From Cladosporium halotolerans (lineage: Eukaryota): DNA of 64,000 bases. The notes beneath the pieces are model-generated. The model saw only the letters and a program-made list of their open reading frames with translations, searched no databases and was not told the DNA's origin. The stretch is taken from the NCBI RefSeq assembly GCF_011745625.1, contig NW_027191501.1, positions 1-64,000 on the forward strand, in the 5' to 3' direction. A program made the position numbers and the translations under genes. Positions 13,194-60,108 of this stretch are shown piece after piece (the stretch's first letter is position 1; each line of letters starts with the position of its first letter).

Positions 13194-13714
13194 TTTGGCA
13201 GATGTCCGCTGTGGGTTAGTAGAGGAGGTGGGTGGTGGTGATTTGCGTGAAGTCGGTGGTAAGCAGCCCTTGGAGATGTGCGACCTCGATTCAAACTTCG
13301 CGACTCGCCAAGACTCAGAAATCGGGGAGCGCACAGCTGGGTTGTCGCCTCAGGCAACAACTGCTCATCACGTGACATTGACTCCGGGAGCATGTGATGC
13401 GGCTTGCTCCCGTCCAGCTCAGAACGCCCACTACTCGTACGCGTCGACATCAACTTGATGATATGGCTTTTTCGAGGATGGAAAGTGCTCATATCACAAT
13501 GCGGTATCTGTCCCATTCGAAGGAAATCGTTCTCGTTATTCGCAACTATTAAGTATCACCGAGGTAGGCCTTCAAGAATAAAGCTCCTGATAATGCTTAC
13601 CAGGAGGTTAAATGCATCAAGAGTTTTAAAAATAGGGAATGTGGGAGAAATGTCTAAAAACTTCATCTATCTGTCAGTAACCCATTAGGACTTCCTTGAG
13701 GAAAGATCACCACG

Positions 13715-14392
13715 ATGTATCTCCCTGTCGAAATCTGTTGGCTCATTCTGGAGCAAGTAGACCTTGACATTCACGTTCGCAAGCATTACATTCTTCCCTA
13801 TCTGCTTGCAAAAACCGCCTCTGAGACTCAGGAGGCGCTCGACTTCCTGCCAGCTTATGAGCGTATCGCCTTCTACACCATCCTACCATATTGCGCGATC
13901 AACAGCGCCTTCCGCGCAGCGGCATTCAAGATCCTCCCGATGAAAACCCTCCTTGCGCAATCTCGACAACAATACCTTCGCGGGGAGACAAGTCGTTTCA
14001 CAGGAGTTACTACCATCAGCAGGCGCGTCGTCCTCCAATTGTGCCCCGACCCAATCGACATGCTCAATCTCGAGCCCAACGCTTTTCAAACCACCGACTT
14101 GGCTGGACTGAAATGGGACATCCGCGAGGCCTCGCTCGACTTCAATACCTACGCACAAGTCGAAAAGCACGTATCTGACACTCGGCGTAATTGGGAGCCA
14201 TTACTCAAGAGCATTTGCTGTCGAAACCAACGACCGAGGTGTGGTGGGCTTGATATATTGGTGGGATTGCCGCACGCGAACGACTTGCTGAAGGCGCAGG
14301 GTAGGTCTGCTGCGGAATCTGTGGCTAGGCGAGTGAGGCTCCTTAAAGGAGCCAATAAAGGATTTGGGGTGCGCACCAGGATCTTTGATTAG
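13715..14392 (+). CDS. Split-F-box-like family protein, copy 1 (225 aa, intronless)
   Basis: LPVEICWLILEQV ... LPAYERIAFYTILPYCAINSAFRAAA blocks are shared with four other ORFs in the window. Confidence 0.75.
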   Translation: MYLPVEICWLILEQVDLDIHVRKHYILPYLLAKTASETQEALDFLPAYERIAFYTILPYCAINSAFRAAAFKILPMKTLLAQSRQQYLRGETSRFTGVTTISRRVVLQLCPDPIDMLNLEPNAFQTTDLAGLKWDIREASLDFNTYAQVEKHVSDTRRNWEPLLKSICCRNQRPRCGGLDILVGLPHANDLLKAQGRSAAESVARRVRLLKGANKGFGVRTRIFD

Positions 14393-14512
14393 CGTGAGAG
14401 GCGAGAGTTTGGTTGATTAGTTTGAAGGGATTATAATTGGATGACAAATTGTTGTGATTTTGACCACAATACCCAAACGCTTAAGGCATTTAGGCAATCG
14501 ATCCCTATCTTC

Positions 14513-15481
14513 CTACTCGTTCTCAAACTTCAATCCTCCCTCCTGTCTCACAGCACCGTAGATGCCGGCAATGTCGCCCTTGCTCCCCATGTGTTTCTGG
14601 ACCATCTCCAGATGCCCATCCGCGACCTCCACAGCCTTCATCTTCGCGCCCGATGATTCTGCAAGCGACAGAGCGTGTCTAGCATCTTTCCTAGCCAGAT
14701 CAACATTGAACAGCGGTTCGTCACGCTTGTAGTAGTCGCCTTGCCTCATGCGGGTGCTGTAGGCAGTGTATGGACCAGGGAACATCGTCTCAATGAATTG
14801 GTGAAGGTTGTCCGAGCCAAGTCCGCTCTTCTCGGCCAAGGTGTGGCCTTCGGAGAGAGTCTCGACCATGTTGAGGATGAAGGTGTTGCCGATGATCTTC
14901 AGTCTGGTGGCGGTGCCGTGCGGCTGGTCCGAGAAGTCGATCTCTGCGCGTCCCATCACGCCTTTGCAGAAAGGCTTGACTCTTGCAACTTGGGCTGCTG
15001 GGCCTGCAAGAACGCAGACCAGTTGGCCATTGTCTGCCATTGCGGGTGCGCCGAAGACAGGGCAGGCCACGAACTCTGCGCCAGCATTGTTGATCGTCTC
15101 TGCCAGCTTGTTGCTGGTGTCGGGGTGAATGGTAGAGCAGTCGACGAACAGCTTGCCTTTTGCGTCTGGCGACTTCAGAGCAGTGTCGATGGTATCAGTG
15201 ATGGCTTTGTCATCTCCAACGCAGGTGAAGATGATGTCGGCCTGGGAGACGGCATCTTCGATTGAGGTGACGACCTTGGTCTTACCAGATGGCAGCGTTG
15301 AGGCCAGCTTCTCGGCTCGAGCAGTCGTCCGGTTATAGATAGCGAGAGGAGCGGCATAAGATCCCTTTTCAACGAGGTTCTTGACCATGCCACGGCCCAT
15401 GTTGCCCAGTCCGACCCAGGCCAGGCGAGGGCTGTTGCCGCTGGAGCCGCCAACGCCCAAAGTCTGCTTGATTGAGTCCAT
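14513..15481 (-). CDS. Beta-hydroxyacid dehydrogenase (3-hydroxyisobutyrate/6PGD NAD-binding family), 322 aa
   Basis: Rossmann motif GLGNMGRGM, VDCSTI, ACPVFGAP and catalytic Lys in LKIIGN. Confidence 0.9.
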   Translation of the reverse strand: MDSIKQTLGVGGSSGNSPRLAWVGLGNMGRGMVKNLVEKGSYAAPLAIYNRTTARAEKLASTLPSGKTKVVTSIEDAVSQADIIFTCVGDDKAITDTIDTALKSPDAKGKLFVDCSTIHPDTSNKLAETINNAGAEFVACPVFGAPAMADNGQLVCVLAGPAAQVARVKPFCKGVMGRAEIDFSDQPHGTATRLKIIGNTFILNMVETLSEGHTLAEKSGLGSDNLHQFIETMFPGPYTAYSTRMRQGDYYKRDEPLFNVDLARKDARHALSLAESSGAKMKAVEVADGHLEMVQKHMGSKGDIAGIYGAVRQEGGLKFENE

Positions 15482-16193
15482 CTTGAACGGATTGAGTCAA
15501 GCTGATGTTTAACACGATGGTTCCTCCAAAGATCGCTTGCTCTCTGCAGTGTAGGAAAACCGTGGAGATAAACTCGTAGATGCGAGGTCTAGTTTGAGTG
15601 TGTGTAGCTCACGGAACAGAGAAGAAGGTCAACGCAACTCCGACACAGCTATGTCCGGACGCGTTCTGGTTCAAAGCACGTCTTGGAAGACCTGGATGTT
15701 GCCACGGCTCTTGATGAGCTTGCGAGTGAGCTACATGTATGTAAGCAGAGCGATGCCGCTTGCCCGAGTCACCGTCTACGAGATGACGTGTTGAAAGCGA
15801 AGTCGGCGGTATCGTACATCAACGATCACGACAGGGTTCCGAGTTTCCCGAGCGAGGCAGGAAAATGTACGCTGTACCGGGAACAAATAGCCCACATCAG
15901 CTACGAAAGATGTTTGACGATAGAAAGCTAAAGGTGTTTGTCAGCTAGTTTACGAGACTTGAAACTATGAACGCGAACTTGTTCGACTGTTGTCACATTC
16001 AGGGCATTGTGGGAATGAAATCGTAATACAGCAACAATTTGAATTTAAGAGAGACGATTCCGGAGCCACAGAATTCATGCGAACCACCTTTGAACGCAAC
16101 AGTAGGGTGTACATCACGTTGGTGTAGCCCCAACCCTAACCCTATCATCGATGCGCCTTCGCACGTGATCGTCCCTCAGTGCGGAAGCATAGC

Positions 16194-16203
16194 CGCGTCG
16201 CGT
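16194..16203. promoter_or_regulatory. Possible tandem MCB-like element (CGCGTCGCGT) upstream of SMC2
   Basis: Double CGCG motif about 130 bp upstream of a cell-cycle gene. The motif is short and the genome is GC-rich. Confidence 0.3.
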
Positions 16204-16333
16204 CAGGTCGCGCTTACCAGAACAGGCAAAACGTTGACTTTCTGTTTACTCGCGCTGCGCTGGCTGTCAAGACGAGACAACTTCCCGCAACACTTCGGCG
16301 CCGTCGGCCACATACTAACAACCAGCAGCGACC

Positions 16334-19300
16334 ATGCGGATCACTGAGTTGATCATCGACGGCTTCAAGTCGTACGCCGTCCGCACGGTCATCTCCCACT
16401 GGGATCCCACTTTCAACGCGATCACCGGTCTGAACGGTTCCGGCAAGTCGAACATCCTCGATGCGATCTGCTTCTGCTTGGGAATCGGACGCTTCGAGCT
16501 TCTGCGCGCGAGCGGAGGCGCGAGCGACCTCATCTACAAGCGTGGCCAGGCTGGTATCACCAAGGCCTCTGTCACGCTGGTTTTCGACAACAGCGACAAA
16601 CCCAAGTCGCCGATCGGCTTCGAGGACTATGCGTCCATCAGCGTCACCCGCCAGATCGTCCTGGGCGGAACGAGCAAATACTTGATCAATGGACACCGCG
16701 CGCAGCAGCAGACCGTGCAGAATCTGTTCCAAAGCGTGCAGCTCAATATCAACAACCCGAATTTCCTGATCATGCAGGGTCGCATCACGAAGGTGCTCAA
16801 CATGAAGAGCACGGAAATTCTGGGCATGGTTGAGGAGGCAGCAGGCACACGCATGTTCGAGGACAGGAGGGAAAAGGCCTTCAAAACAATGGCGAAGAAG
16901 CAGGCTAAAGTTGAGGAGCTGGAGGGTCTCTTGCGCGAGGAGATTGAGCCTAAGCTGGAGAAACTGCGCAACGAAAAGCGCACATTTTTGGAGTTTCAGA
17001 GCACCCAGAGCGATCTCGAGCGTTTGACAAGATTAGTTGTCGCGTACGACTACGTCAAATCGAAGCAGAAGCTGCAGCAGAGTGCTTCTGACCTGACTGC
17101 AAAGAAGGAGCGCGCAGATTCGATTGAGGAGAATGCAGAAAAGCTGAAACGCGAGATTGGTGTTCTGGAGGAAGACATGGAGAAGGTTCGTGAGGCACGA
17201 GACAAGGAACTGCGCAAAGGAGGCAAATTCGCCAAGTTGGAGGAGTCCGTCAAGACTCATTCGCACGAGCTCGTACGTCTGGCAACTGTGTTGGATCTGA
17301 AAAAGGCCTCCATGGCCGAAGAACAGGAACGTTTGAAGAAGGCCCAGGCGACGGTCCACGATCTTGAAAAGCAGCTGAAGCAGAAAGCCGAGGCACATGA
17401 ACAACTGCAGCAGCAGTATGCGACAGCAAACAAGGATTTGGATGAGCAGAAGACTGAAGTCGAGAAGAAAGAAGAGCTTCTACAGACTCTGCAGACCGGT
17501 ATTTCCTCCAATGCTGGGTCGGACGGTGGCTACGCTGGCCAGTTGTCCGCAGCACGAGATGGCGCGAGCAAGGCTGGCACCGAGATTGAGCAGTCTAAGC
17601 TCAAGATCTCCCATCTGGAATCACGCATCAAAGAGGACGAGCCGCGCGCAAAGAAGGCAGAGAAGGAGAACACTGGTCTCCTTTCCGACCTGGAAGTTCT
17701 GCGAAAACAGGCTGGTCAGCTGGAGAAAGAGCTCCAAAAGCTAGGGTTCGAGCCGGGACGTGAAGAGCAGCAGCAGGCCGAAAGAACAACGATCGAGAAG
17801 CGCATTCGTGTTCTCCAAGCTGATGCCGAAGCGATGCGACGAAAGGTTGCTGGCTTGGATTTCTCTTACTCAGATCCATCTCCCAACTTCGACCGGAGAC
17901 GAGTCAAGGGTCTTGTTGCTCAGCTTTTTAACCTCCCAGCTGACAAGGCCGAGGCTGGCACTGCGCTTGAGATCTGCGCTGGCGGCCGTCTTTATAACGT
18001 CGTTGTCGACTCTGCAGAGACCGGTACCCAACTTCTCCAAAACGGCAAGTTGAGGCGTCGTGTGACTATCGTTCCTCTTGACAAGATCTCCGCGTCTAGG
18101 GCACCTGCCGACAGAGTCAACGCTGCGCAGAAGCTGGCTCCCGGCAGAGTCCACCTGGCACTGACTCTGATCGGCTACGATCACGAAGTTGAGAAGGCTA
18201 TGGAGTTCGTCTTCGGCAACACTTTGATCTGTGCCGACGCCTCGACCGCCAAGACCGTCACATTCAACCCAAATGTCCGCCTGAAGAGTGTGACTGTCGA
18301 AGGTGACGTCTACGATCCTAGTGGCACTCTCTCTGGTGGCTCAGCTGCTCAGGGAAGCGGCGTTCTCCTCACGCTACAGAAGCTCAACGCCATCACCGAG
18401 GAGCTGGAGCGCGAAGAGCAGAAGCTGGCATCTCTCGAGCGACTGATGGCGAAGGAGGCACAGAAGATGAAGTCTGCCAGGCAAATCAAGCAAGACCTCG
18501 ACCTGAAGGCCCACGAAATCTCGTTGGCCGAGGGTCAAATTGCGTCCAATTCGTCAAGCAGTATTATTGCTTCGGTCAAGGAGATGAAAGAGACTGTCGC
18601 GGCCCTGAAGATCAACATCCAGGAGGCGAAGAAGCGTCAATCTGAGGCGGAGGCGGAAGTCAAGAAGATCGAGAAGGACATGAAGGACTTCTCGGCCAAC
18701 AAGACGGGGAAGCTCGACCAGCTGCAGAAAGAGGTAGAGAAGCTGAAGAAGTCGTTGTCAAGCGCACAAGGAAGCATCAAGCCTTTGCAACAGCAGATGA
18801 GAGATGCGGGCGTTGATAGCGAACAAACCGGAAGCGATCTCTCAGCCGCCCAGGAAGAGCTTCAAGACTCCAAGACGACGCTTGACGGCCACGCAAGTGA
18901 GCTGCAAGGCCTTGAATCGGAGGGAAGGAAGGTGAGGGCATCTCACGATGAGGCACAAGCGTCCCTCAACGACGAGCGCGCAAAGCTCTCTGGCTTCGAC
19001 GATGAGCTTGCTGATCTCGAACGTGCTTCCAAGCGCAAAGCGCAGCAGATCTCTGACGAGAAGCTGGAGGCTCAGAAGTTGGGCCATGCCATTGACAATT
19101 TCTCCAAGGCGCAGCAAGCTGCTCAGTTGACATTGTCGACCATGGAGAAAGAGCACGATTGGATCCACGAAGCCGCCACTTCTTTCGGCAAACCGGGAAC
19201 GCCTTATGACTTCTCCGGAGCCAACATGGGCGAAGCCAAGTCGAACTTGAAGACTGTCACAGAGCGCTTCCAAGGCATGAAGAAGAAGATCAACCCTGCT

Positions 19301-19935
19301 GTCATGGCCACCATTGACTCTGTCGAGAAGAAGGAGGCTAGCCTCAAGCAGATGATGCGTACCGTCATCAAGGATAAGAAGAAGATCGAGGAGACGATCG
19401 AGAGCTTGGACGACTACAAGCGCGAGGCTCTGCACAAGACGTGGTCAAAGGTCAACGAAGACTTCGGCCTTATCTTCAACGACCTTTTGCCTGGCAACAC
19501 CGCGAAGCTCGACCCGCCTGAAGGCAAGGAAATCAGCGATGGTCTCGAGGTCAAGGTCTGCTTGGGGAAGGTCTGGAAGCAGTCGCTCACTGAGCTTTCT
19601 GGTGGTCAACGGTAAGTCACACCCTCGTTCCCCAAGTGTTCCTAAAACTTCAAGCTAACATCACTTCCAGCTCCCTCATCGCTCTCTCCCTCATCCTCTC
19701 CCTCCTCCAGTACTCCCCCGCGCCAATGTACATCCTCGACGAAGTCGACGCAGCGCTCGACCTCTCGCACACGCAGAACATCGGCCGCCTGATCCGCACG
19801 CGCTTCCGGGGCAGCCAGTTCATCGTCGTCAGTTTGAAGGATGGCATGTTCACGAACGCGAACCGCATTTTCAGGACGAGGTTCATGGACGGCACGAGTG
19901 TTGTCCAGGCGCTCACCCCGGCGGATATGAAGTAA
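16334..19935 (+). CDS. SMC2: Condensin subunit SMC2, 1180 aa; exons 16334-19611 and 19671-19935
   Basis: Walker [10 protein letters not shown], coiled coils and hinge, LSGGQR signature, Walker [12 protein letters not shown]. One GTAAGT...CTAAC...CAG intron. Confidence 0.97.
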
Positions 19936-20437
19936 TGAGAAAATCGAGATGGATGTAATGATGGACGCGGCATGTTTGGGCGTTTCTGGATGGCTGGGTG
20001 CAGAGATACCTCTTGGCTTGGGCATATGGGGGGTTTGGATTGTTTTTTCGTATTTCTTTGTTTTGTCAATAATTTATCCGATTTGGCATGTGTCTTTTCT
20101 TAAATTCATGTTTCAACATGATTAGAGTCACGAGTTCTTCAAGACTTGGTGCACCAAGGGATTTGCTAGTTCAGGTCTGATTTTGTAATCCTGTCGCAGT
20201 GCTGCTGCGTAATAACAACCTTCCATTGCATGTCCGACTCAATCGAACCATACTCGAAACCGTCAACTCCAACTCTCGCAATTCTCCCACCCGAACAAAG
20301 AGCCCAGCACGTCCGAACAACCTCCCAGCTCAACCACGAGCCACAGCAAACCCTCCCCTGCCCGGACGTCCACTCCCCTCCTCCAACATCACTCCAAGCC
20401 CCGAAACCCTCCACTAATCACCACAATAATCCCCTCC

Positions 20438-21292
20438 TCACTCCCAAATCCCCACAACGCCCCAAACCCCCATCTCCCTCCAAACCCCCTCCACAACCCC
20501 CTTCATCTCCTCCGCCCCCTCCCACGCGACCCCCTCCAACCCCTCCTCCGGCGCCCCCGCCAGCAACTCCACCCTCCGCACCGTCAGCAGCAGATCGCAC
20601 CGCGCCCCGTCCAGCAGCCGCGCCCGGTGCGCGCCCCACATGCGCGCGAGCGCCGCCAGCCGCACGCCCCAGCGGCTGCCGCGGTGGTGTCCGGCGAACG
20701 TCGGGCTGGCTACTAGGGATTCGTAGGTCGGCTGCGGGTAGAGCTCGAGCGTGAGGCGGGTCGGGCGCCGGTTTTGCGTCGGGGCCATGAGGAGGAGGAG
20801 GGAGGGGGCGTAGGTTTGCTGCTGCTGCGATTGGGGTTGGGTGGCGAGCCGGGGCGTGCTGGCGAGGCGGCGGGTGGGTGTGAGGAAGGTCTTGCGCAGC
20901 AGCGGGATGCTTGTTAGCGGCGGCGAGCAGGTGCGGAGCAGGACGGCGGAGAGGAAGGCTTGTTTTGCGGCGCGCCGGGTTTGGCGGTCGATGGCGTAGT
21001 AGGGGAGGATGGCTTTCCAGGCTGCGAACTCGAGGTCGGGCAGGCGGGCGGCTTGCGAGAGTTCGGTCGCGGGGCCTTGCTCGAAGACGGCGGCGACGAA
21101 GCAGGCGATGTAGGCGGGGCGGGCGGTGTGGTTTTCGTGGGTGAGGGATTCGAAGATTTGGATCCAGAGTTCGAGGGGGAGGCGGCGGGGTGGGGGTTTG
21201 ATGGTGGTGCGTTGGGTGAGTGTTTGTTGATATTGCGGTTGGAGTGGTGGGAAGTTGTCTTGGAGAGAGAGGTTCTGCATTAGTTGGTCCAT
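20438..21292 (-). CDS. Split-F-box-like family protein, copy 2 (~284 aa, intronless)
   Basis: LPLELWIQIFESL ... LPDLEFAAWKAILPYYAIDRQTRRAA and a C-terminal VWREMGVWGVVGIWE block similar to the paralogs. Start chosen at MDQLMQ. Confidence 0.75.
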   Translation of the reverse strand: MDQLMQNLSLQDNFPPLQPQYQQTLTQRTTIKPPPRRLPLELWIQIFESLTHENHTARPAYIACFVAAVFEQGPATELSQAARLPDLEFAAWKAILPYYAIDRQTRRAAKQAFLSAVLLRTCSPPLTSIPLLRKTFLTPTRRLASTPRLATQPQSQQQQTYAPSLLLLMAPTQNRRPTRLTLELYPQPTYESLVASPTFAGHHRGSRWGVRLAALARMWGAHRARLLDGARCDLLLTVRRVELLAGAPEEGLEGVAWEGAEEMKGVVEGVWREMGVWGVVGIWE

Positions 21293-21641
21293 GTTGAAGA
21301 TGATGGCGGCGGTGCGGAGGAGATGAGATGTTGGATGGCTTGTTGTGTTGTTGGGTTGCAGCTGGCGGAGGGTGTTTGACGTTGCGCGCGAAAAGGAAGG
21401 CCGGCGTTGTCGGCGACGGGTCTTCACTGCAATCTGTCCGTGGGAAAGTGAAAGGGGTATGAGCGGCAAATATGTGAATTCTCGAGTCGGCTGTTATCTT
21501 CCGTGCAAACACCAAGCTCCCACTCCCACTTATTTCTTCACGGAACGTGTCGTGCTACCATCCGCTCTAAACCCTCACAACCAGACCACACCACGGAGAG
21601 AACTCCACACCATCTCCCGTCCCCAGCCATCCGCCTCTCCC

Positions 21642-23597
21642 CTAATCAGGCTTCGCCTTATCCGCCCAACTCGGCACAACCCCCCTGCAAACCCGCACAT
21701 ACTCCTCCCACCTGGTCCTATCCTCCACGACGCCCTCGCCCGTCCAAAACATCGTCCACCCGCTCCCCGGAATCGTCCAGCTCCCACTAGCCCGCTCAAA
21801 ATACCACTTGTTAACCGGATTGTCCACCCTGCTTCGCCAGCAGACTCCATGAGGAAAGCACGTGCGCGCCATGGCCTGGAAGACGATGTCCGCGACGCCC
21901 GCGGAGCCCTGGGATGTCTGGGCGACGGCGAACTTGTCGAGGTAGGGGACGGGATTGGCGGAGCCGGGGGGTTGCTCCCAGGTGAGGATTGCGCCGCCCT
22001 CGTAGTCGCCGGCTATGATGAGGCCGGCGGTGCGGCCGGCGATGCGGGAGAGGTAGTGGTCGACGTCGAGCTTGCGGCGGAAGGAGTCTTCGATGAGGGC
22101 GACGAGGCGGGGGAGGTTGATGCGGGGGTCGGTGCGAAGGTTGAGTGGGCTGGGCGTGTTGGGTGCGGGCGCGGGCCAGCCGATCCAGCGGTCCGCGGAG
22201 GGGATGATCGTGAGCGGCATGCCTTTTTTAACGAGGGTGGCGGTGGGACGGGAGGGGGATGGAGAGGTGTCGGGGGAGGGCAGGCGGGCGAGAGGCAGGG
22301 AGGAAGAGACCAGGGGTTTGTTGGTGAGAAGGTTGTGGATTAGGGTGTTTTTTTGCTGGCGCGTGCCGGTACGGATGGGCTCGCCTTGGGTGCGGCCGCG
22401 GGAGGAGATGGCGGCTTCTTCGGGCGTGATGATGAGGGCAGAGGAGGCGGAGGGCAGCATTGCGAGGCATTGGCGGGTAATGTCAAGGTTGGCGTGGTGT
22501 TGGCGGTATTGTGCTGCGGGGTTGCCGGTGTTGCCGTTTAGGAGTTCTTTGCTGATGGAGTCGAATTCTTGCTCCAGGTTGATGAAGATGTGGGCGCCGT
22601 CTCCGCGGTCCTTGCTAGGGATTCCGCCGACTGGATCGAGCATGATGATGCGATCCAGGGATACCGGGTCGGGATATTCTGCGTGGCTGCCAACTTCAGG
22701 CGAAGCGCCTTGGCCTGACAGCTGGGCAGTCAGGGCTCGCATGACCTCGGCGAGATTTGTTGAGGTCAAGTGTCCAGAGTTGGAATAAGCAAGGGTAGGG
22801 ACGATGGTGACTGCACCTCGCTTGAGCGGGTGCAGCAGAAGCTGAGGCATCGACACAATTGCACCAGTCCCGCCCAAGGAGTCAGCCATGTCCGCACAGC
22901 TCATGGCGTCTGGCACGAAACGTGCACCCTCAGGACTATGGTTGGAAATAGCCTTGACCAAGCGATCGCCTTGTTCGGTGAGCATGTCCCTCCTAGCGTG
23001 CAGGTCCTGGTGATGCACATCGCCCAGATCTACGCAGTCAATGGCGAGCAAAATGCGCATGTCCAAGCGGACGAGCTGGGACAGTGTGGCGGCCAGTCCG
23101 TCCAGAAGGCCATCGTCCAGACTCTCAGGTGACCGCAGTGATGCCAATGCAGTGTGCATAGGCTTAGGCTTGTTGGCAACCTTCTCCGGAACGAGCTCTC
23201 TGGTGAACTGAGGAGTGTCTGCTATTGACCTCGCTGGAGCATAGAGTCCGCCCAAGTTGACGCCCATCCGATCGACGCGGTCCTGATCACGGCGGTGTCG
23301 GGCATTTCGTTCGTCCTGTGGCGATGGTCTCGCAGGTGCTGGCTTCGGTTCCTTGAATCGAGACAGATACTGCTTTGCGTCTCGCTTGGTGGCGTTGGCA
23401 GTCAAGACGTGCATGAACAAGTCTCTGGACACGCGGGGATCCTCGTCCACGCGGGCGGCGGGCGGCTTGCCATTGCTGCGAGGACCAGCGGCGTTGCCAA
23501 ATTGGCGGGATGATTCGTAGGCGGTGAGGCCGGCGACGGTCTTCTTAAGTGCCCCGAACGCGCTTGCCTTTCCAGACGCCAACATAGAGGTAGTCAT
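21642..23597 (-). CDS. ARG2: Mitochondrial amino-acid N-acetyltransferase (N-acetylglutamate synthase), 651 aa
   Basis: ATKRDAKQYL, IIMLDPVGGIP, HIFINLEQEF, LIHNLLTNKP and C-terminal GNAT/DUF619 motifs YLDKFAV, WRSRVDNPVNKWYFERASG. Confidence 0.93.
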   Translation of the reverse strand: MTTSMLASGKASAFGALKKTVAGLTAYESSRQFGNAAGPRSNGKPPAARVDEDPRVSRDLFMHVLTANATKRDAKQYLSRFKEPKPAPARPSPQDERNARHRRDQDRVDRMGVNLGGLYAPARSIADTPQFTRELVPEKVANKPKPMHTALASLRSPESLDDGLLDGLAATLSQLVRLDMRILLAIDCVDLGDVHHQDLHARRDMLTEQGDRLVKAISNHSPEGARFVPDAMSCADMADSLGGTGAIVSMPQLLLHPLKRGAVTIVPTLAYSNSGHLTSTNLAEVMRALTAQLSGQGASPEVGSHAEYPDPVSLDRIIMLDPVGGIPSKDRGDGAHIFINLEQEFDSISKELLNGNTGNPAAQYRQHHANLDITRQCLAMLPSASSALIITPEEAAISSRGRTQGEPIRTGTRQQKNTLIHNLLTNKPLVSSSLPLARLPSPDTSPSPSRPTATLVKKGMPLTIIPSADRWIGWPAPAPNTPSPLNLRTDPRINLPRLVALIEDSFRRKLDVDHYLSRIAGRTAGLIIAGDYEGGAILTWEQPPGSANPVPYLDKFAVAQTSQGSAGVADIVFQAMARTCFPHGVCWRSRVDNPVNKWYFERASGSWTIPGSGWTMFWTGEGVVEDRTRWEEYVRVCRGVVPSWADKAKPD

Positions 23598-23604
23598 TTT
23601 CCAT
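23545..23604 (-). promoter_or_regulatory. Out-of-frame uORF overlapping the NAG synthase start (MENDYLYVGVWKGKRVRGT*), arginine-attenuator-like
   Basis: ATG at 23604 (GGCATGG), 7 nt upstream of the main ATG at 23597, ends at TAA 23547-23545. The ORF is read directly; its function is inferred. Confidence 0.5.
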
Positions 23605-23674
23605 GCCTAGAGCGCGGGCGGATTCTCGTGGGTGAGTGGTGAAGTGAAGACAGAGCGAGGCGCCTCAGGAAGCC

Positions 23675-23680
23675 GAGTCA
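23675..23680 (-). promoter_or_regulatory. Possible Cpc1/Gcn4 site (TGACTC) in the ARG2-CYS4 divergent promoter
   Basis: TGACTC core about 80 bp upstream of an amino-acid biosynthesis gene. Confidence 0.35.
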
Positions 23681-24343
23681 CGCTAGGTGCAAAGAAACGC
23701 GGTGCACGGCGCAGGATGAGCCATTAATGCCCAGGGTCGGTGAGGGCGGGCGAGCGGTGCTGCAGACGACGCTGCGTGATTTTATCAGGGCGGTTAGTCA
23801 GAAGTCAGAGGCAGAGCAGAAACACTGCAGGGCTATGGAGGTGCGAATGCTGTATAAGGTACCTTCGGCGTCAGGCGCAAGCAGTAAACGCGGCTTGCAT
23901 GAGCGATAACTCGATAGGTGACACATCTTTGCGTGGGAATGCGACGCCTATCAATCGCCGGCATCGGCGGAGACGGCAACAAGGCCGTTTTGTGTCGCGC
24001 GCATCGGCCAGTCGCCCGTCTCTGCCCTACGCAGCCATCGTTATATAAAGAAACGGCGCTCCCGCAGATCTCACGGCGTCTCGAGTCCCACGCCTCGCTG
24101 CCTTCGGCCTAATAACCTCCATCAGAGTCTGAGGGCAGAAAATGCTGCTGCTTAGGCCGGGCGTGTTTTGCTTCGGCTAGTGCCGGCTGCCCTGACCAGA
24201 GACGCCGAATGGCGAGACAAAGCGCCGACAGCACGAATTCTCATGCCACCCAGGTAGGACCTCATCCCACTTCTGCCCTGCCCTCCCCTCCCCTCCTCTG
24301 CCCCTCCACACTCCCAGTCACACATCCGCAAACACCTCCCACC

Positions 24344-25078
24344 ATGTCCCACCTCTCGTCGCGCGCCCCGCGCCAGCCGCCGGCGGTCATGGACAGCATC
24401 CTGGAGAACATCGGCCAAACGCCTCTGGTCCGCCTAAACCGCATCCCGGAGTCGCTGGGCGTCGACTGCAAAATCTACGCCAAGTGCGAGTTCTTCAACG
24501 CCGGCGGCTCCGTCAAGGACCGCATCGCCCTGCGCATGGTCGAAGCCGCCGAGAAGGAGGGCCGCATCCGGCCCGGACACAGCGTGCTGATCGAGCCCAC
24601 GAGCGGCAACACGGGCATTGGCCTCGCCCTCGTCGGCGCCGTCAAGGGCTACCGCACCATCATCACCCTGCCGGAGAAGATGAGCAGCGAGAAGGTCTCC
24701 GTCCTGAAAGCCCTGGGCGCCGAGATCATCCGCACGCCGACCAGCGCCGCCTGGGACGCCCCGGAGAGCCACATTGGCGTCGCGCGCCGGCTGGAGAAGG
24801 AGATTCCCGGCGGCGTCATCCTGGACCAGTACGCGAACCCGAACAACCCGCTCGCGCACGAGATGGGAACCGCGGAGGAGATCTGCGAGCAAGTGTCGAA
24901 GGTCGAGGGCAAGTTCGCGGCGCTCGTGGCTGGCGCCGGCACCGGCGGCACCATCACTGGCCTCTCGCGCGGCATCCGCAAGCACCACGGAAAGGACGTC
25001 AAGATCGTCGCCGCAGACCCCATGGGCTCAATCCTGGCCGTGCCCGCCAGCCTGAACGACGAGGGCAAGGACAAGCCG

Positions 25079-25113
<35 letters not shown>

Positions 25114-26011
25114 GGACGTGCTGGCGCAGAACGAAGTCGACACGTGGTACAAGACCAACGACGTCGACAGCTTCTACTGGGCGCGCCGGCTGATCCGCGA
25201 GGAGGGCCTGCTGTGCGGCGGCTCCGCGGGTTCCGCCATGAGCGCCTGCGTGCAGGCCATCAAGGGCCTGAACCTCGGCAAGGGCGACGCGATCGTCGTC
25301 ATCCTCCCCGACAGCATCCGCTCGTACCTCTCCAAGTTCGTCGACGACGACTGGCTCGCCGCCAACGACCTCCTCCCGCCTTCTCCCCCTCTCACCGCCC
25401 CCGTCACCCCGGACCTGCAGCCCGCCGACGCCGCGGGCCAGGAGAAGAAACTCGCCGCCCCCAACGGCCACACCCCCACCAAGCAGCCCAAGAAGGGCGA
25501 CTACGCCAACCACACCGTGTCCGACCTGCGCCTCAAACCCATCCAGACAATCCCCCTCACGGCCTCCGTCGACGACGCCGTCGAGCTCATGCGCGACAAA
25601 GGCTTCGACCAGATCCCCGTCACGTCCTCGAAATCCACCCGCCTCGTCGGCATGGTCACGCTGGGCAACTGCCTGTCGTACCTCTCGTCCGGCCGCGTGC
25701 AGGTCTCCTCGCCCGTGTCCGAGGTCATGTTCAGCTTCTCGAAGCTCGACGAGGTCAAGCCGCTGGAGAAGTTCCCGGCGCTGACGGAGGGCGACGAGAG
25801 CAAGAGGCAGTTCGTCGAGGTCACGATGCGCACGCCGCTGGAGGTGCTGGCGCGGTTTTTCGAGTGGAATGCCGCGGCGGTCATCACGGAGAGGGACAGC
25901 GAGGGGGCGGGCGCGGGCGTTGGGGGTTTGAGGGCGGTCGCGGTTGCGACGAAGGTCGATTTGTTGACTTGGTTGGTTAGGCAGGGGAGGCTGCAGAGTG
26001 CGCAGAAGTAG
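24344..26011 (+). CDS. CYS4: Cystathionine beta-synthase, 555 aa, intronless
   Basis: PLP Lys motif NAGGSVKDRIA, EPTSGNTG, GAGTGGT and a C-terminal CBS domain pair (GFDQIPV). Confidence 0.96.
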
Positions 26012-26454
26012 AGGCTGTCGATGGTGGTGGGGTTTACGTTGGGTAATGAGCCAAGAGCAGCGCAGGGCATTCACGAGCATGGCGTTTTTTTCTTTTGTTT
26101 TTCATGGGTGGATGGGTAGGTATTGCATATGTGCATTTGGGGCGGAGGGCTCTCAACAACCCCTCCCTGGTCTGGGAATCCGTATAGACACGTTGATAGA
26201 TTTATTTTTTCTCCAGATTGCATCGAATCGAAAGTGGTCTGAGCGCAAAGCAAAGCGGATCTTACACTTCACTTCACTGCGCCCCGCTTCTTGGGTCTCA
26301 CGTGACTGGGCGCACAGACGCAGGCGGTGAAGCGGTGCCTGCCTCGCTGCCTGGCTTCCCGGTATCAGGTGTCCTGGATCACAGCTCTTGACTTCACAGT
26401 CCTTCTCTAGGCAAACTCCGATCTCTGCGCAACTATTCCCATTGCCAAATCATC

Positions 26455-27297
26455 ATGGGCGCCATGCCATCTGCGCCACAAATGCCGGGAGAGAGGCGGG
26501 CTGTCCCTCAATCCGGTCAGTCATCCATGCAGGACACCAAGAAAGACCTTCCCATCGAGCTCTGGATGCAGATCCTAGACATCGTCGCTGCGATTCCGGA
26601 TTCTCGCCTTCTCACTCGCCCTCACGTCGTCCTGGAGTACGAGGAGCACCTCACGACCATAGACCTCGGCTTCCGCGCTTCTAACACCGGCGAGCAAACT
26701 GATCATTACATCAAAACAGCGAAGGCTGAGCTCGGAGCAGCGATGATCATCCAGCGCCTCGAAAGGCGCTCCTGGCTCCTCACCCGTGCCTACTACCAGA
26801 TCAATACCCGCATCCGCGCCGCCGCCGTCAAGGTGCGCCTCTCGGGCCGCCTGCTGACCGCCAGCCGTCGGTTCATCTACACCGTCGACCACCAGCGCCG
26901 CGTGCGTCCCCGTTCCGTGGACCTAGCAAGCTGCTCCAAAACCGTCCCGCGCATGCCGCCATGTACGGTCTTCGAGCTCCCGCCCTGGCCTCTCAGCAGA
27001 AGCCGCGACGAGTACTTCAGGTCGTTCCGCCTGCTGTTTAAGTTTCTCGAGCCGTATGGCATCGACAACCGCAAGACGCTGCCGCCCTTCATAGGCACCG
27101 AGGTAGGCGAGGCTCTTTTCTTTCAGAGCGACGTCAAAATCTTGGTCCCTGGCATGCATTGGGAGGACTACCCCGGAGGGTGTCCGAGAGCCTACCGCGT
27201 CGCTCTTGCCTGCGATGTTGCGAGGATGCTTCGCGAGCTCTGGACTAGGCATGGAACGAGGTTTGCATGTGAGCACTGCACGGTCGAAGTGATCTAG
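26455..27297 (+). CDS. Split-F-box-like family protein, copy 3 (280 aa)
   Basis: LPIELWMQILDIV ... LERRSWLLTRAYYQINTRIRAAAVKVRLSGRLL. Confidence 0.8.
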   Translation: MGAMPSAPQMPGERRAVPQSGQSSMQDTKKDLPIELWMQILDIVAAIPDSRLLTRPHVVLEYEEHLTTIDLGFRASNTGEQTDHYIKTAKAELGAAMIIQRLERRSWLLTRAYYQINTRIRAAAVKVRLSGRLLTASRRFIYTVDHQRRVRPRSVDLASCSKTVPRMPPCTVFELPPWPLSRSRDEYFRSFRLLFKFLEPYGIDNRKTLPPFIGTEVGEALFFQSDVKILVPGMHWEDYPGGCPRAYRVALACDVARMLRELWTRHGTRFACEHCTVEVI

Positions 27298-27824
27298 GTC
27301 TGTGCAGTGCGATGAGCTGGAGGCTCATCATGTACCCTGCGGTAACCCCGCCGGCAGCGACATTGCGCGAAGGAGGCTTTTCTTTCATTTGGCTTGATAA
27401 GCAGGCAGTTGGCAACAGCTTCTGGGATGCAGGGTTTTTGCTGCAGGGAACTGTATTCGCAGCAGTATAGTAGTGTTGATAGCTTTATTGAGACCCGAGC
27501 TGAGCGAAAAGCAATGTTCATGCGCGCGGCGACGCAATCTGCTCTATGTATGCAGGGTCTTTCGCGGCTGAGGGCATCTTAAATTCCAGTCTCTAGGAAC
27601 CTTGAGTATCGTTCCTTTCGGAATCCAACCAAAAGCATCGTCGACACCCAGTCTACGTTCTGCTCAGACACAACACCGCCGTCGACTGCACTCGCAACTC
27701 CACCACGGCAATCGCAAAAAAATCACTGATTTTACCAACTACATCATTTATCGACAAACTCCGACGTCTCTGCAAACGCAGCCTGTCGATCATTTGGAAC
27801 GACGCCTCCGAGATCCCCTGCCAC

Positions 27825-28568
27825 ATGGACTTCCCGGTCGAGATCTGGATGCGCGTCTTCGAACTACTGGAGCCTGACGACTACATGGTGATCAGACACC
27901 GCGAACGTATGCTCAACAAGTACAACGAGGTTTTCGACGAGCATGACCGCCTCACCGCTGCAGAGGTGATGGGCAACGATCGTGAGGCGGCGGAAGTCGA
28001 AATGAATGCGGCCGGCGAGCTACCGATTTTCGAACGGCGCGCCTGGATACGTACCAGGATCTTTTACGAGATCAACCGCAACAGTCGGGCAGCGGCGCTC
28101 AAGAGTCGCCTGTCGTGGCGCCTGTTGAACAACTCCTGGAATCCACTTCAACTGACGCTCCAACCGGACTCGTTGCCCGACTCGCCGGTACTGACCAACA
28201 ATTGGACTCGAGACAGCAGCAGGCTTCGATCGTACGCGGTGATCGCGCTTGGTTCTTTCCTGGTCTTGGAGGAGCTCGAGCGCCAATTTTCCGAACCCGT
28301 CAATTATTTCCAGTACTTGATCGACCCTGGGAGCCACGGCGAAAAGTTCTGTTGTGTGGATACCACATCCAAACAGACCTACCCGCTCCGTGATATTCTC
28401 TTGGAGAGTGAGCATGTGGTAATCTTGTCGCCTTGCCGAGCTTCGGATGAAGGGGATTACCACCCGCACTGGTATCAACTATACGTCGTCGGGCTTATGA
28501 AAGGCGCGGTGAGGCAATTTTGGGCGGAGAAGGGGATTCGGTATCGGACTGTGGAGCTCTGGGAGTGA
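27825..28568 (+). CDS. Split-F-box-like family protein, copy 4 (247 aa)
   Basis: FPVEIWMRVFELL ... LPIFERRAWIRTRIFYEINRNSRAAALKSRLSWRLL ... VRQFWAEKG. Confidence 0.8.
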   Translation: MDFPVEIWMRVFELLEPDDYMVIRHRERMLNKYNEVFDEHDRLTAAEVMGNDREAAEVEMNAAGELPIFERRAWIRTRIFYEINRNSRAAALKSRLSWRLLNNSWNPLQLTLQPDSLPDSPVLTNNWTRDSSRLRSYAVIALGSFLVLEELERQFSEPVNYFQYLIDPGSHGEKFCCVDTTSKQTYPLRDILLESEHVVILSPCRASDEGDYHPHWYQLYVVGLMKGAVRQFWAEKGIRYRTVELWE

Positions 28569-29071
28569 AGCGTACACTCTGTCATGGATGGCGAGAATGA
28601 TGTGTGCGCTTGGTTGTGAGCATCTCTAAGCCCTGTGGCTGGTAGAGGGATTTGGCGAACGGAGCAGACTGCAATGTGAGGGACGGCGAGAGGGCTTGAG
28701 CTATGAAGTGGGAGAAATGGATCGATTGCCTACAGTCGCTCCCCCATCGGGACTACTGACAATGAGGAGCGAATACGGATGTCGAGAATGGTGTGCACGT
28801 TCTATAGACTATCAACATTAGAAGAAAAGTTGATTTCAGTTCACGCAGACGTGCACGGTCAGAGAAACTAATCTCGCTTTGCCTAAAGCCGTATTGGATT
28901 CCGAACCATTGAAGTCAGCGCTTTTCACCGTGTCTTCCTCCTTCCTTCCGCGAGTCACATGACGTCGACCGACGGCCTCACTCAACATCAGCTTCGTCAA
29001 TCACTACCTCGATTTTACCAACAACATCACAACCTGGTTTTAACAGTAACAATACGAGCTGCCGCACCGCA

Positions 29072-29842
29072 ATGCTCGCCAAAATGGATTTGCCAGTCGA
29101 GATCTGGATGTGCGTCTTCGAGTTACTGGAGCCTGACGACTACATGGTGGTGCGCGCTGAAGTCCTCTTGGAGTACATAAAAGTACACAACGAAGAGCAG
29201 ACACACGACGAGTGCATGATCCCAGCTGTCGAGAAAAAAGCGATGAGCAAGCTGCCAGCCTTCGAGCAGCGCACCTGGGTGAAGACCAGAGTTTACTATG
29301 CGATCAGTCAAAACAGCCGCGCTGCTGCTGTGAAGATGCGGCTGTCGAAACGCTTGCTGTTGAGCTCGTGGCGCGAATGGGATCTGTTCCTACACCCGAT
29401 GGACGAAGGCATGCACAAACGTGCCCTGAAAAACATGCCTACTCGAACCATCAACAGACTCCGCTCGTACGTTGCCATCCAACTCACTCACAAGTCGGCC
29501 AAGATGGACCTTCAGCAGGAGCTGAGAGGTTTCCCCGAGTACTTTACCAGGTACATAGACCCTGGCGCTTATAGCTTTCGACGGTCTCGCTGGACCATGT
29601 GGGAACCAAAGGCCCAAAAGTATGCATTCGTCGACCTTCTCATGGAAAGCGAGCACATTGTGCTTCTAGCACCTGAAGCACCCCCTAGGAACGAAAACGC
29701 GGATTGGTTCCCTCTGCGTCTCGCAACTCTCGCACAGGAAGTGGTGAGGCAGTTCTGGGCCGACAAAGGATTTCAAAATCGGACCGTCGAGGTCTTCGAT
29801 AATGTCACTGTGCCAGACGACTTTGACTATGCTTCTGAGTAA
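29072..29842 (+). CDS. Split-F-box-like family protein, copy 5 (256 aa; alternative start at 29084)
   Basis: LPVEIWMCVFELL ... LPAFEQRTWVKTRVYYAISQNSRAAAVKMRLSKRLL ... VRQFWADKG. Confidence 0.8.
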   Translation: MLAKMDLPVEIWMCVFELLEPDDYMVVRAEVLLEYIKVHNEEQTHDECMIPAVEKKAMSKLPAFEQRTWVKTRVYYAISQNSRAAAVKMRLSKRLLLSSWREWDLFLHPMDEGMHKRALKNMPTRTINRLRSYVAIQLTHKSAKMDLQQELRGFPEYFTRYIDPGAYSFRRSRWTMWEPKAQKYAFVDLLMESEHIVLLAPEAPPRNENADWFPLRLATLAQEVVRQFWADKGFQNRTVEVFDNVTVPDDFDYASE

Positions 29843-30151
29843 GGCTCCAAAGAATAAAGTCTGAGCAGAAGGAAACAACGTCAACGATTGCATCTGATAC
29901 TTGCGCCCTTCAGCAAGGCGATCATGGATGCTGGCGAGCAGCACAGATCGTTCGCCTTCGCTCGCCAGCGGGACAGCATGGGCGGATGACTTGAGAAGAA
30001 ACCGGAGGTGGGGACAAACTCTGCAATGCGTGCTTTTCGCTCGATGGAAAATGAATTGAGTGGGATGAGCCCCGAGGCGGATAGATAGGCGTGCCGAGAA
30101 GGGCTTTGCTGCAGTAAGTCTAGATACCAAGCTCCACAAACCGATTGCCTT

Positions 30152-30848
30152 TCACTGTGCCTTCTTCCCACGAACCACCTGACGTTGGCCTACAGCCTCA
30201 TTGAGCCTGCCGAGCATGTCTACCGCCATGAATACAGCTGCGATGAAAGTTAGCTCACTGACTCTGAGAGGCCGGGGTATGCATAGAGAGCAAAACATAC
30301 ACAAAGCCAGATACGGCACATAAAGCTTCCCCAGCTCGATCTTCTGCGCGCTCTGGAACTCGCTCCAGCTGAGATAGTCCGCAATGCATGTAGCCGTCGT
30401 GACAGCGGTTTGAACAGCGTACACTAGCAGGTGGACTGGCACTTTCGGGTCGTCTGTGAAGTCATCGTCAATATCTGATCAGCTCCTCCGGCATGAATGG
30501 GCACGTACTCCTAATCAACGCCCCAATAGCCCAGAAAGACAGCGGGACGTGGTAGATCAACTCCATGTACATGTACATGTTGAACCACGCAGGTGGCTGC
30601 GTGAAGAAGCGGTCCGCGTACGTCGTAATGTACCATTCTCGGAGCGTGGTGATGAACTGTGGCTTGTAGGCCGCTGGATATAGAGGTGCGAGGTCCACGC
30701 CTTTGGTAGTAGGTTAGTAATCTGGAGGGCTGTTGCGCTCGGAGAGACGCGTCAATGACTTACAGAACAGGACGGGGACGTGTATGATGAAGAAAACCAA
30801 GTATAGGAGGTCGCGTTTCCGCGAGAAGATGCTTGTTGGGTTCGCCAT
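30152..30848 (-). CDS. EXPERA-domain (TMEM97/sigma-2-like) ER membrane protein, 171 aa; exons 30848-30764, 30700-30509, 30453-30301, 30237-30152
   Basis: RKRDLLYLVFFIIH..VDL.PLYP, Y.DRFF..PPAWF..Y...ELIYH.P, four hydrophobic helices and a C-terminal KKAQ ER-retrieval motif. Three introns keep the frame. Confidence 0.85.
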
Positions 30849-32121: not shown

Positions 32122-33462
32122 TTACAGTGTTCTTCTCGTTCGGGCTGGGCGGGGGTTCTCCGAATCTTGCTGCCCATCCCTTTCGGGCTTGCCCGGCCGC
32201 TTTCGCTTCTTCTGCTTGACTTGAGGCTTCTTGGCGGGCGCATGAGTCTTGGGCTCGGTCTTGCGCAGGCCTAGACGCTTGTCTGCTTCGTTGTAGCCAT
32301 AGTGGGAAACATCGACTTTCTCGTACCATGCGCGGTCCAGAGCCTTGCAAGTACTAAGCAAGCGCTTGCGTAGCTTTTTGAACTCAATATGCCGCTCAGG
32401 GATAGTTTCTGCCTTTTTCTCCAGATCATCGAATGGATCGGCTGCCAAATTCAGAATCTCGATGTGCGCAATATTCAAATCGTGGAAGTGGCCCCGGATG
32501 CGCGCACTCGCAAAGGCCTGGATTGTTGCGTCAAGCTCTGACACCGGATCTTTCGGCCGGGCGGACGGCGCTGAGCGCTCGCAGCCCTGTCCAAGTTGCG
32601 TAAATTCCTGTTGATCAGTCTCTGTCGTGAAATCGATCACTTCATCTCCGGTCAGGTCAACCATGACTTTCTTGCGTCCTCCCTGCGCGGCAGGATTGGA
32701 CTCAGGAGTGATCGGCGGTGTCATCATACTGCCAATCCCTCGATTTACATTCTTTGTCGAAGCGAGAGCTTCCAGCCCCTTCCTGAAATCATCGACGAAC
32801 GGCCTGAGAGCCCTGAAATACCTCCGAAAGGCCTCGTAATCCTTGACCTCCGCGTTGCTCCTGACAAGCTCCTCAACTGTGATAGCAATATCCTTCCACA
32901 CACCAGTATGGCCAGGAAACGTGATGCTGAACTTCCCGCCCCTTTCTCCAGCATTCAAGTTCCGGATTCTGCGTATCGGGTCGGTAAGAAAAGCCGTCAT
33001 GTGCATGCGAGAGAGCTCGCCGGGCTGGATGTACTTGTTTTCATGGATGACATCTTTCTTGATGCGGAAGCCTGCCCAGACATCTGCAGTGGTCATTTGG
33101 CGCTCGTTGGGATCGTTGGGCAGGATGATTGTGATGCGGATAGTCAAAGAGCGGAGGCGGTGGTCCGGTGGTATGCGATCGACGAAGGCGAATAGCACGT
33201 CTTGGACGGCGCAGACGGATACTGGGTCGTTGCCGGTGGAGATGTCGATTTCCAGGTCTCTCGTCATTTCCAAGGGGTCTAGGAAAGAGCTCTCGGCGAT
33301 GCCGTCTAGATAGAGCGTGTTTGCTGGGCGAGGGTTGCCGTTAACGATCTGGCGAAAGCTCAACCAGGCTCTCGAACCTTTGTCGCTCCAGCCACCGATA
33401 GATGCTTTGTATGAATGTGCTCTGTCGTTCAGCGCGTCTTGGACGCTGATTTGGTGAGCCAT
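32122..33462 (-). CDS. Hypothetical protein (446 aa) with a basic NLS-like C-terminus and SIM-like motifs
   Basis: Long ORF with AAAATGG start context and a TATA-like TTTATAA about 90 bp upstream. No family recognised. Confidence 0.7.
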   Translation of the reverse strand: MAHQISVQDALNDRAHSYKASIGGWSDKGSRAWLSFRQIVNGNPRPANTLYLDGIAESSFLDPLEMTRDLEIDISTGNDPVSVCAVQDVLFAFVDRIPPDHRLRSLTIRITIILPNDPNERQMTTADVWAGFRIKKDVIHENKYIQPGELSRMHMTAFLTDPIRRIRNLNAGERGGKFSITFPGHTGVWKDIAITVEELVRSNAEVKDYEAFRRYFRALRPFVDDFRKGLEALASTKNVNRGIGSMMTPPITPESNPAAQGGRKKVMVDLTGDEVIDFTTETDQQEFTQLGQGCERSAPSARPKDPVSELDATIQAFASARIRGHFHDLNIAHIEILNLAADPFDDLEKKAETIPERHIEFKKLRKRLLSTCKALDRAWYEKVDVSHYGYNEADKRLGLRKTEPKTHAPAKKPQVKQKKRKRPGKPERDGQQDSENPRPARTRRTL

Positions 33463-59374: not shown

Positions 59375-60108
59375 GAAGCGGTGGGCTGCGGTGGGGGAGT
59401 TGGATGGGGTGAGTGAGAAGTCTTTTGCTGTAATTATATGGGGTCTATTGAGGCTTATATAGTGGTGGAATCGGCGTTGGGTTTTCGGTGGTGAGGAGCC
59501 GAAGTTGGAGGTGAGGTGGTGAGGTGGGGTGCGGTGAGAGGTCGATTCTCAGGAATGGGTGTGGAATCGCTTGGTGTCTATTCTTAGAGAGAAACTCAGT
59601 CGTCGCGAAACATGATATTCAGCTTGATTCCTCCAGTCAGTCTGATCGTGTAAATTATCCGACATCCATGTTTGAGAGCGCAGGTCGTCCACAGGACAGC
59701 ACTCGCTAATAATCCTAACGTTACTCGACTTCCCCATCTCGAATCTGACATCACGGCGTTTCAGGGTCTGGGGTAGTCGCGGTTGCTAGGGTAAACAGTC
59801 GACTTCAGCCTCCCGCTTTTTGGCCCCAGCCACTCCAACCACCTCGAAGGCGAAGGCCGCGCAGCCCTCCGAAAATCGATTATTGGGGTGTTGGCTCGGC
59901 CCTACCGTCCTTCGCATCCACACGAAAATCCTGCTTCACCATTCTTGCAATTACACAACGCAAAACACCTCGCTCAAATCCACCGAATCCAAGCCAGATC
60001 CACGGCAAGCCGAACGCCAACGGCTCCGCTTGAACATCTGCACTACCAGACGATTGTGCTGAGGCTTCGGCCTTCAGTACCTTGAGTGCAGTCTCGAACA
60101 CATCCACG

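Follow-up and report, generated by a model that had tools for sequence, protein, structure and literature searches.

An undescribed fungal protein family in Cladosporium halotolerans that combines an F-box-like N-terminal motif with an unrecognised alpha/beta domain

Within a 64,000-nucleotide stretch of Cladosporium halotolerans DNA (contig NW_027191501.1, positions 1 to 64,000; hereafter the window), five open reading frames (ORFs), numbered here copies 1 to 5, are real genes, expressed or expressible. They encode soluble proteins that belong to an undescribed and fast-diverging fungal family, in which an F-box-like N-terminal motif is joined to an unrecognised alpha/beta domain. Our analysis shows this family to be real, unnamed, fungus-restricted, and partly expanded in this lineage. 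As to what the proteins do, the explanation we favour, with a probability of roughly 0.4, is that the N-terminal module derives from an F-box and serves for docking, and that the proteins act as small adaptors.

Paralogy and expression of the five ORFs

All five ORFs were present at the coordinates and on the strands given in an earlier note made from the sequence alone, and encode proteins of 225-284 amino acids (aa): copy 1 at 13715-14392(+) (225 aa), copy 2 at 20438-21292(-) (284 aa), copy 3 at 26455-27297(+) (280 aa), copy 4 at 27825-28568(+) (247 aa), and, in tandem with it, copy 5 at 29072-29842(+) (256 aa), whose protein was modelled with AlphaFold2. A MAFFT alignment of the five copies brought out every shared element that the note had described. 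Block 1, an N-terminal [LF]P[VIL]E[IL][WC] helix motif, reads LPVEICWLILEQV, LPLELWIQIFESL, LPIELWMQILDIV, FPVEIWMRVFELL and LPVEIWMCVFELL in copies 1 to 5 (13721-13759(+), 21143-21181(-), 26548-26586(+), 27831-27869(+) and 29090-29128(+), respectively), and the helix-1 motif LP.E[IL]...[IL]...L stands at the domain start in all five. A spacer of about 29-53 aa separates it from block 2, with the pattern LP.FE..AW..TR.YYAI...R.AA (block 2 regions at 13823-13987(+), 20903-21067(-), 26725-26889(+), 27996-28160(+) and 29228-29392(+) in the same order; in copy 5, LPAFEQRTW..YYAISQNSRAAAVK). No part of the family is better conserved than block 2, in which L61, E65, Y76, R83, and A86 are near-invariant across 54 sequences. 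The C-terminal W...G....V pattern is also visible, although copy 1 lacks the W and keeps the pattern only partly.

Pairwise similarity among the copies spans a wide range. With BLASTP at a database size of 5 million residues, copies 4 and 5 matched over their full length at 4e-50 with 40% identity, copy 3 matched copies 4 and 5 at about 1e-11 to 1e-13, copy 2 matched copies 4 and 5 at 1e-3 to 3e-3, and copy 1 matched copy 5 at 5e-3. A family profile was then built from 49 relatives that lie outside the window, all five window copies being excluded, and was compared with 935 six-frame pieces of the window. It recovered copy 2 (6.9e-50), copy 5 (5.8e-47), copy 4 (1.7e-43), copy 3 (1.7e-33), and copy 1 (1.5e-16), the next piece having an E-value of 0.41; the test is not fully independent, since those 49 sequences were first retrieved by a profile containing the window copies. 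Copy 1 is the most divergent, and its profile match is restricted to the N-terminal ~90 residues. Judged by their sequences, the five ORFs are paralogues with similarity beyond chance, and the proposal of a five-member paralogous family stands; the profile matched nothing else in the window.

Three types of observation bear on whether these ORFs are genes. Codon log-odds, with six of the window's housekeeping ORFs as the training set, were positive for the annotated frame (0.19-0.45) and negative for the other two sense frames in each of the five copies, the same frame pattern as in the housekeeping genes, whose scores were higher (0.43-1.14). Open-frame orthologues of equal or near-equal length were found in public assemblies for every copy, namely P0005 for copy 1 (95% identity), P0004 for copy 2 (92%), P0009 for copy 3 (95%), P0003 for copy 4 (91%), and both P0001 and P0002 for copy 5 (95% and 89%). 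Finally, contigs of the runs X2 and X3 derive from RNA, since they carry a spliced joint (19610/19670) in place of a 59-nucleotide (nt) GT..AG intron at 19611-19669, near the 3' end of the SMC gene.

These RNA-derived contigs cover several of the copies, at depths that are contig means, with X2 and X3 coming from a single study, and that show the presence of RNA rather than its level. One X2 contig (29039-29950; depth 7.9) covers the entire copy 5 with no splice joint and one 1-nt gap, and X3 cover extends over 29244-30000 at a depth of 25. Other X3 contigs lie within copy 3 (26539-26923; depth 3.5) and at the end of copy 4 (28473-28828; depth 5.9), while the depth of housekeeping neighbours is 70-90. 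For copy 1, the X3 13620-15856 and X2 13835-15648 contigs also cover a convergent dehydrogenase gene, so that its own transcription is not separable from that of this neighbour. Copy 2 had no X3 cover and no X2 cover at 20371-20937, with an X2 bin mean of 6.9 beside a contig starting upstream of the ORF; in a further RNA run, X22, cover was confined to the housekeeping neighbours. Absent cover, whether of copy 2 in X2 and X3 or of all copies in X22, is no evidence of silence. The suggestion that the genes are intronless is thus borne out where RNA contigs provide cover, that is for copies 3, 4, and 5, with copy 1 ambiguous, and expression of the family is documented by the same contigs over copies 3, 4, and 5.

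The possibility that the five ORFs are spurious, or are remnants of mobile elements in GC-rich fungal DNA, draws on the many long chance antisense ORFs of the window and on the overlap of copy 2 with a proline-rich ORF on the opposite strand. It is contradicted by protein-level conservation across 80 clusters, by the frame-specific codon bias, by the retention of frame and length in orthologues, and by the RNA contigs over several copies. DNA contigs of a related organism, X4, are moreover collinear over copies 1-3 and their housekeeping neighbours, and no transposon-like flanking repeats were found around the copies in a repeat search. We consider this explanation extremely improbable and rejected it.

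Spread, duplication and divergence of the family

The family extends well beyond the window while remaining small. When 1.84 billion representative proteins were searched exhaustively with HMMER, 80 matched at E ≤ 1e-3, 63 at ≤ 1e-10, and 11 at ≤ 1e-30, with lengths of 61-382 aa and no long fused forms among the matches. Word-indexed searches of 5.8 billion proteins gave 8 matches each, and neither these matches nor the 16 members read in 10 clusters carried a name or accession; they came from run assemblies, ENA, and JGI only. A metagenome scan with a 13-sequence alignment identified five short loci, none of which carried the window's housekeeping neighbours; at one of them (L004), the encoded protein was 40% identical to copy 2 over 258 aa. 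Among the papers listed for 2EXR and for F-box expansions in Dothideomycetes, none has a title concerned with this family, and none listed for 2EXR is by title on 2EXR itself.

The relationships among copies were examined in a quick maximum-likelihood tree of 44 rows. A 10-row clade with a Shimodaira-Hasegawa-like approximate likelihood ratio test (SH-aLRT) value of 95 comprises copies 1, 3, 4, and 5, their orthologues, and the protein P0011, all from the lineage formed by this organism and its closest relatives, whereas copy 2 falls in a wider subfamily with P0012, P0013, P0017, P0026, and others. On the evidence of this tree, duplication within this lineage gave rise to copies 1, 3, 4, and 5, and copy 2 represents an older subfamily. 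The proposed local, lineage-specific expansion hence applies to those four copies but not to all five, because copy 2 belongs to the wider and older group. A sixth paralogue, P0011/P0086, occurs in relatives, with 37% identity to copy 4 and no counterpart in the window, where no sixth copy or remnant of the family was found. P0086, which clusters with P0011 at 90%, lies on a contig of 366,639 bases, exactly as long as the longest contig recorded for the copy 4/5 orthologues; the sixth paralogue is therefore probably located near copies 4 and 5 in a relative, outside the stretch that corresponds to the window.

Comparison with the relative X4 points towards uneven divergence along the window. 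Differences amounted to 171 over 13494-20380 (about 2.5%), 58 over 20497-22300 (about 3.2%), and 97 plus 23 gaps over 22294-27778. Across 27780-29977, the interval of copies 4 and 5, an identity of ≥90% was instead reached only in the patches 27780-27862, 29067-29278, and 29632-29797, with similar spacing in the X4 record. Copies 4 and 5 thus diverge much faster than their surroundings, given that only patches reach 90% here while the flanks differ by about 2.5-3%, and by this alignment 27780-29977 is a local hot spot of divergence. The 5' ends of these two copies form an 83-nt direct repeat (27808-27890 and 29067-29149; 83% identity), with 6 differences in the first 66 coding bases, compared to 40% identity for the whole proteins. 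Such near-identical 5' ends suggest strong constraint on the N-terminal motif or gene conversion of it. When the orthologous proteins of copies 1-4 were compared, 13 of the 370 positions belonging to the N-terminal module differed, as did 49 of the 594 belonging to the C-terminal domain, and by these counts the C-terminal domain is shown to change faster than the N-terminal module.

F-box likeness and the structure model

F-box and F-box-like domains (Pfam PF00646 and PF12937) constitute the Skp1-binding module of SCF substrate adaptors, and many fungal, plant, and nematode F-box families combine an N-terminal motif with a variable C-terminal domain and lineage expansion. The present family has the same overall plan, and its N-terminal LP.E[IL]...[IV]F..L.P.D aligns to profile positions 2/3-25. 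In copy 5, residues 6-28 match positions 3-25 of 43 of the F-box profile (E 0.042; 14.2 bits against a cut-off of 20.5), and among 28 further representatives, P0080 matches positions 2-25 of 47 of the F-box-like profile (E 0.0044; 17.2 bits against a cut-off of 24.3). Across the 54 family members at E ≤ 1, F-box-like was matched 8 times and F-box 3 times, every other family being matched no more than twice, and the best E-values for these two domains were 0.0095 and 0.038, both sub-threshold. Among ESM Atlas feature neighbours, 22 of 30 were F-box clusters, a weak lead. Over the first ~25 residues, the family thus resembles the first F-box helix more often than expected by chance, through recurrent sub-threshold Pfam matches. 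This partly supports the earlier F-box claim; a complete or split F-box is not supported, as detailed below.

An AlphaFold2 model of copy 5 reached a mean predicted local distance difference test (pLDDT) score of 84.7 and a predicted template modelling (pTM) score of 0.81 when 54 sequences were used, compared to a pLDDT of 54.1 with only 13 sequences. Its helices span residues 9-17, 29-41, 47-59, 63-77, 80-88, and 91-97, followed after residue 97 by strands (103-106, 133-139, 195-199, and 238-242) alternating with helices. Helix 9-17 corresponds to the F-box helix-1-like block 1 (LPVEIWMCVFELL), and helices 63-77 and 80-88 to block 2. Between them, helices 29-41 and 47-59, variable in sequence and without Pfam match, follow helix 1 immediately, where helices 2 and 3 of an F-box would be expected, and block 2 forms later helices.

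The remainder of the model, about residues 99-256 (29366-29842(+)), is a predicted alpha/beta domain of no recognised family. Its C-terminal part had no Pfam match in any of the five window copies, and an Atlas search with residues 98-256 of copy 5 gave no usable match. Against solved structures, Foldseek returned no match at E ≤ 1e-3 for the copy 5 model, and the best of 48,161 representative chains in VIA-align was a designed binder aligned to residues 110-251 with a Z of 5.0, for a quoted chance level of Z 7-8 and a meaningful level for helical bundles of about 13. A second look with VIA-align gave the same picture, with weak matches spanning residues 20-253. The earlier description of this ~150-aa C-terminal domain as unrecognised was thus sustained by Pfam, Atlas, and structural searches alike. 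No F-box protein was among the rows listed in the Foldseek and VIA-align searches of the whole model, where residues 22-256 dominate and 1-21 are barely covered; since the N-terminus was hardly tested there, these fold searches do not count against an F-box.

Residues 28-102 of the model, taken as a small helical bundle, aligned in VIA-align with 8rb3_A, 6r22_A, 3g26_A, and 4x3x_A at Z 4.2-4.6 (root-mean-square deviation 2.5-3.4 Å over 62-72 residues). This is a fold-level likeness of that segment only to the small C-terminal helical bundles of retroviral, Arc, and PNMA capsids. With Z far below about 13 and a sequence identity of 3-8%, the modelled resemblance is one of common arrangement and not of kinship.

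The proteins share an architecture of four parts. An N-terminal LPVE[IL]W..[IV]FE.L.PD helix, which resembles the first F-box helix and loop, is followed by a helical spacer of variable sequence, then by the strongly conserved pair of helices LP.FE.RAW..TR.YYAINR.SRAAA, and finally by the divergent alpha/beta domain, which ends in W...G...G.V.V; all four come together in a single AlphaFold model with high whole-chain confidence. In the explanation we favour, the N-terminal module would dock on Skp1/SCF or a similar partner, the variable C-terminal domain would recognise fast-changing targets, and the proteins would serve as small substrate or partner adaptors. Block 2 would in this case be a family-specific structural element rather than the displaced second half of an F-box. 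A role as SCF adaptor is plausible.

A number of results weigh against this adaptor explanation. Not one of 82 proteins (the 54 members, including the five window copies, and the 28 representatives) reached the Pfam gathering score for F-box or F-box-like, and the matches of copy 5 and P0080, confined to profile positions 2/3-25, cover only the first half of the F-box profile. Block 2 segments on their own yielded no F-box or F-box-like match in any of the five copies, even at E ≤ 10. A search of the family profile against 177,635 distinct solved-structure sequences detected no F-box chain at E ≤ 10; its four weak matches at that level are of chance quality, the best being an acetyltransferase (3jvn_A, E 0.036). 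The Atlas lead is likewise weak, with a recognition of 2180, below the 2300 mark, and 111 shared features, fewer than the 170 typical of a true family. The contrast in rate between N-terminal module and C-terminal domain is missing from copy 5, for which its two orthologue comparisons gave 6/92 vs 5/158 and 14/92 vs 14/158 differences, respectively, and the tree program itself warned that copies 1 and 3, given their long branches, may be falsely joined. Finally, the high pTM and the weak matches over residues 20-253 fit one compact unit better than a free F-box module.

Compared to known F-box proteins, then, the family differs in that matches cover just the domain's first half and always fall below threshold, that the canonical second-helix motif is absent at its expected place and block 2 provides no detectable replacement, and that the proteins are short (about 200-380 aa), with a C-terminal part lacking any Pfam match in the window copies. 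The architecture proposed in the earlier note is a true F-box split by a hypervariable insert, with block 1 as helix 1 and with V[SC]K.W-type helices 2-3 contributed by block 2, the parts being reassembled in space for Skp1 binding. The alignment of block 1 to F-box profile positions 3-25 and the strong conservation of block 2 are consistent with such a split, and by eye AINRNSRAAA in block 2 loosely resembles the VSKRWRALA-type consensus of the second F-box helix. Yet neither block 2 by itself nor the family profile, run against solved-structure sequences, led to an F-box, and in the model helices 29-41 and 47-59 already occupy the place of F-box helices 2 and 3. A block 2 that acts as second F-box half is not supported, and we regard a split F-box as very unlikely.

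Another candidate is 2EXR (Pfam PF20150), an uncharacterised fungal family whose N-terminal module of roughly 90 residues is itself F-box-like and has two spaced E.R motifs. The present proteins could represent a divergent branch of it, which would be compatible with the adaptor explanation. Both groups are fungal and uncharacterised, with two conserved N-terminal blocks and a variable stretch between them; one representative, P0057, matched 2EXR across both blocks (residues 2-80 on profile positions 6-76 of 94, E 0.041), and block 2 of copies 3, 4, and 5 contains E-x-R (ERR, ERR, and EQR). However, P0057 was alone among the 28 representatives, with 15.4 bits against a cut-off of 24.8, and the list of 20 families matched by the 54 members at E ≤ 1 does not include 2EXR. 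None of the other 81 scanned proteins matched, and since 82 proteins were scanned, a single match with E 0.04 is at chance level. Block 1 also has a W where the first 2EXR motif has an R. Membership of the 2EXR family appears unlikely, if less so than a split F-box.

About equally likely as the adaptor explanation is a compact single-domain protein of new or unrecognised fold without SCF link, in which the LP.EIW likeness would be convergent or vestigial and the function, be it that of an enzyme, a binding protein, or an allorecognition factor, would lie elsewhere. The whole-chain pTM of 0.81, a best structural Z under the chance level, the empty Foldseek result, and the absence of any member above Pfam thresholds all speak for it, as do the near-invariant charged residues E10, R28, E65, and R83, which lie outside the needs of an F-box. 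Conversely, the recurrent and position-specific sub-threshold F-box matches, together with the Atlas neighbours, are hard to ascribe to chance alone, and the L.PDD loop after helix 1 fits the F-box-like consensus. A bolder combination of both ideas can be formulated: a compact new fold in which an F-box helix-1 relic and the family-specific helices FERRAW...YYAINRNSRAAA form one unit with the quickly evolving alpha/beta domain, multiplying and diverging in place among housekeeping genes and recognising non-self or foreign proteins as a lineage-confined innate-defence or allorecognition system, whether SCF-linked or SCF-independent. We consider this scenario a long shot.

Genomic surroundings and implications

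The copies are set among housekeeping genes, with domain matches to S17e, NAD_binding_2/HIBDH-like, SMC, the NAT domain of N-acetylglutamate synthase, and a PALP+CBS enzyme. Copy 1 is flanked by the S17e and HIBDH-like genes, copy 2 by the SMC and N-acetylglutamate synthase genes, and copy 3 lies 3' of the cystathionine beta-synthase-like gene; beyond copy 5, an EXPERA/TMEM97-like gene of two exons occupies 30155-30713(-) (Pfam EBP, E 2e-10 and 6.5e-8). The neighbours named beforehand from the sequence, RPS17-HIBDH, SMC2-ARG2, and CYS4-TMEM97, were thereby recognised correctly. Antisense to the 3' half of copy 2 lies the 174-aa proline-rich ORF mentioned above (20230-20754(+)), which is probably a by-product of GC-rich sequence and no gene. 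The window contains no Skp1 gene. Elsewhere in it, three long ORFs of 446-502 aa, at 32122-33462(-), 56634-58139(+), and 60034-61437(+), have no Pfam family at E ≤ 1e-4 and may be further lineage-specific genes.

Orphan families that are confined to one lineage and begin like an F-box are common among filamentous fungi, and the finding is a sound annotation gain that holds no surprise for a specialist. Should the proposed docking on Skp1 be true, these proteins would constitute a new class of fungal SCF adaptors, very small in size, in which an atypical F-box is paired with a recognition domain that is also new, and the family's recent expansion in one lineage would offer a handle on the targets of fast-evolving adaptors. 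If there is no docking on Skp1, a confidently modelled family with no clear solved-structure neighbour and no name in the sources searched would still be useful for structure determination and curation. The practical gain is modest either way: a five-gene family, probably missing from annotation, has been placed and delimited.

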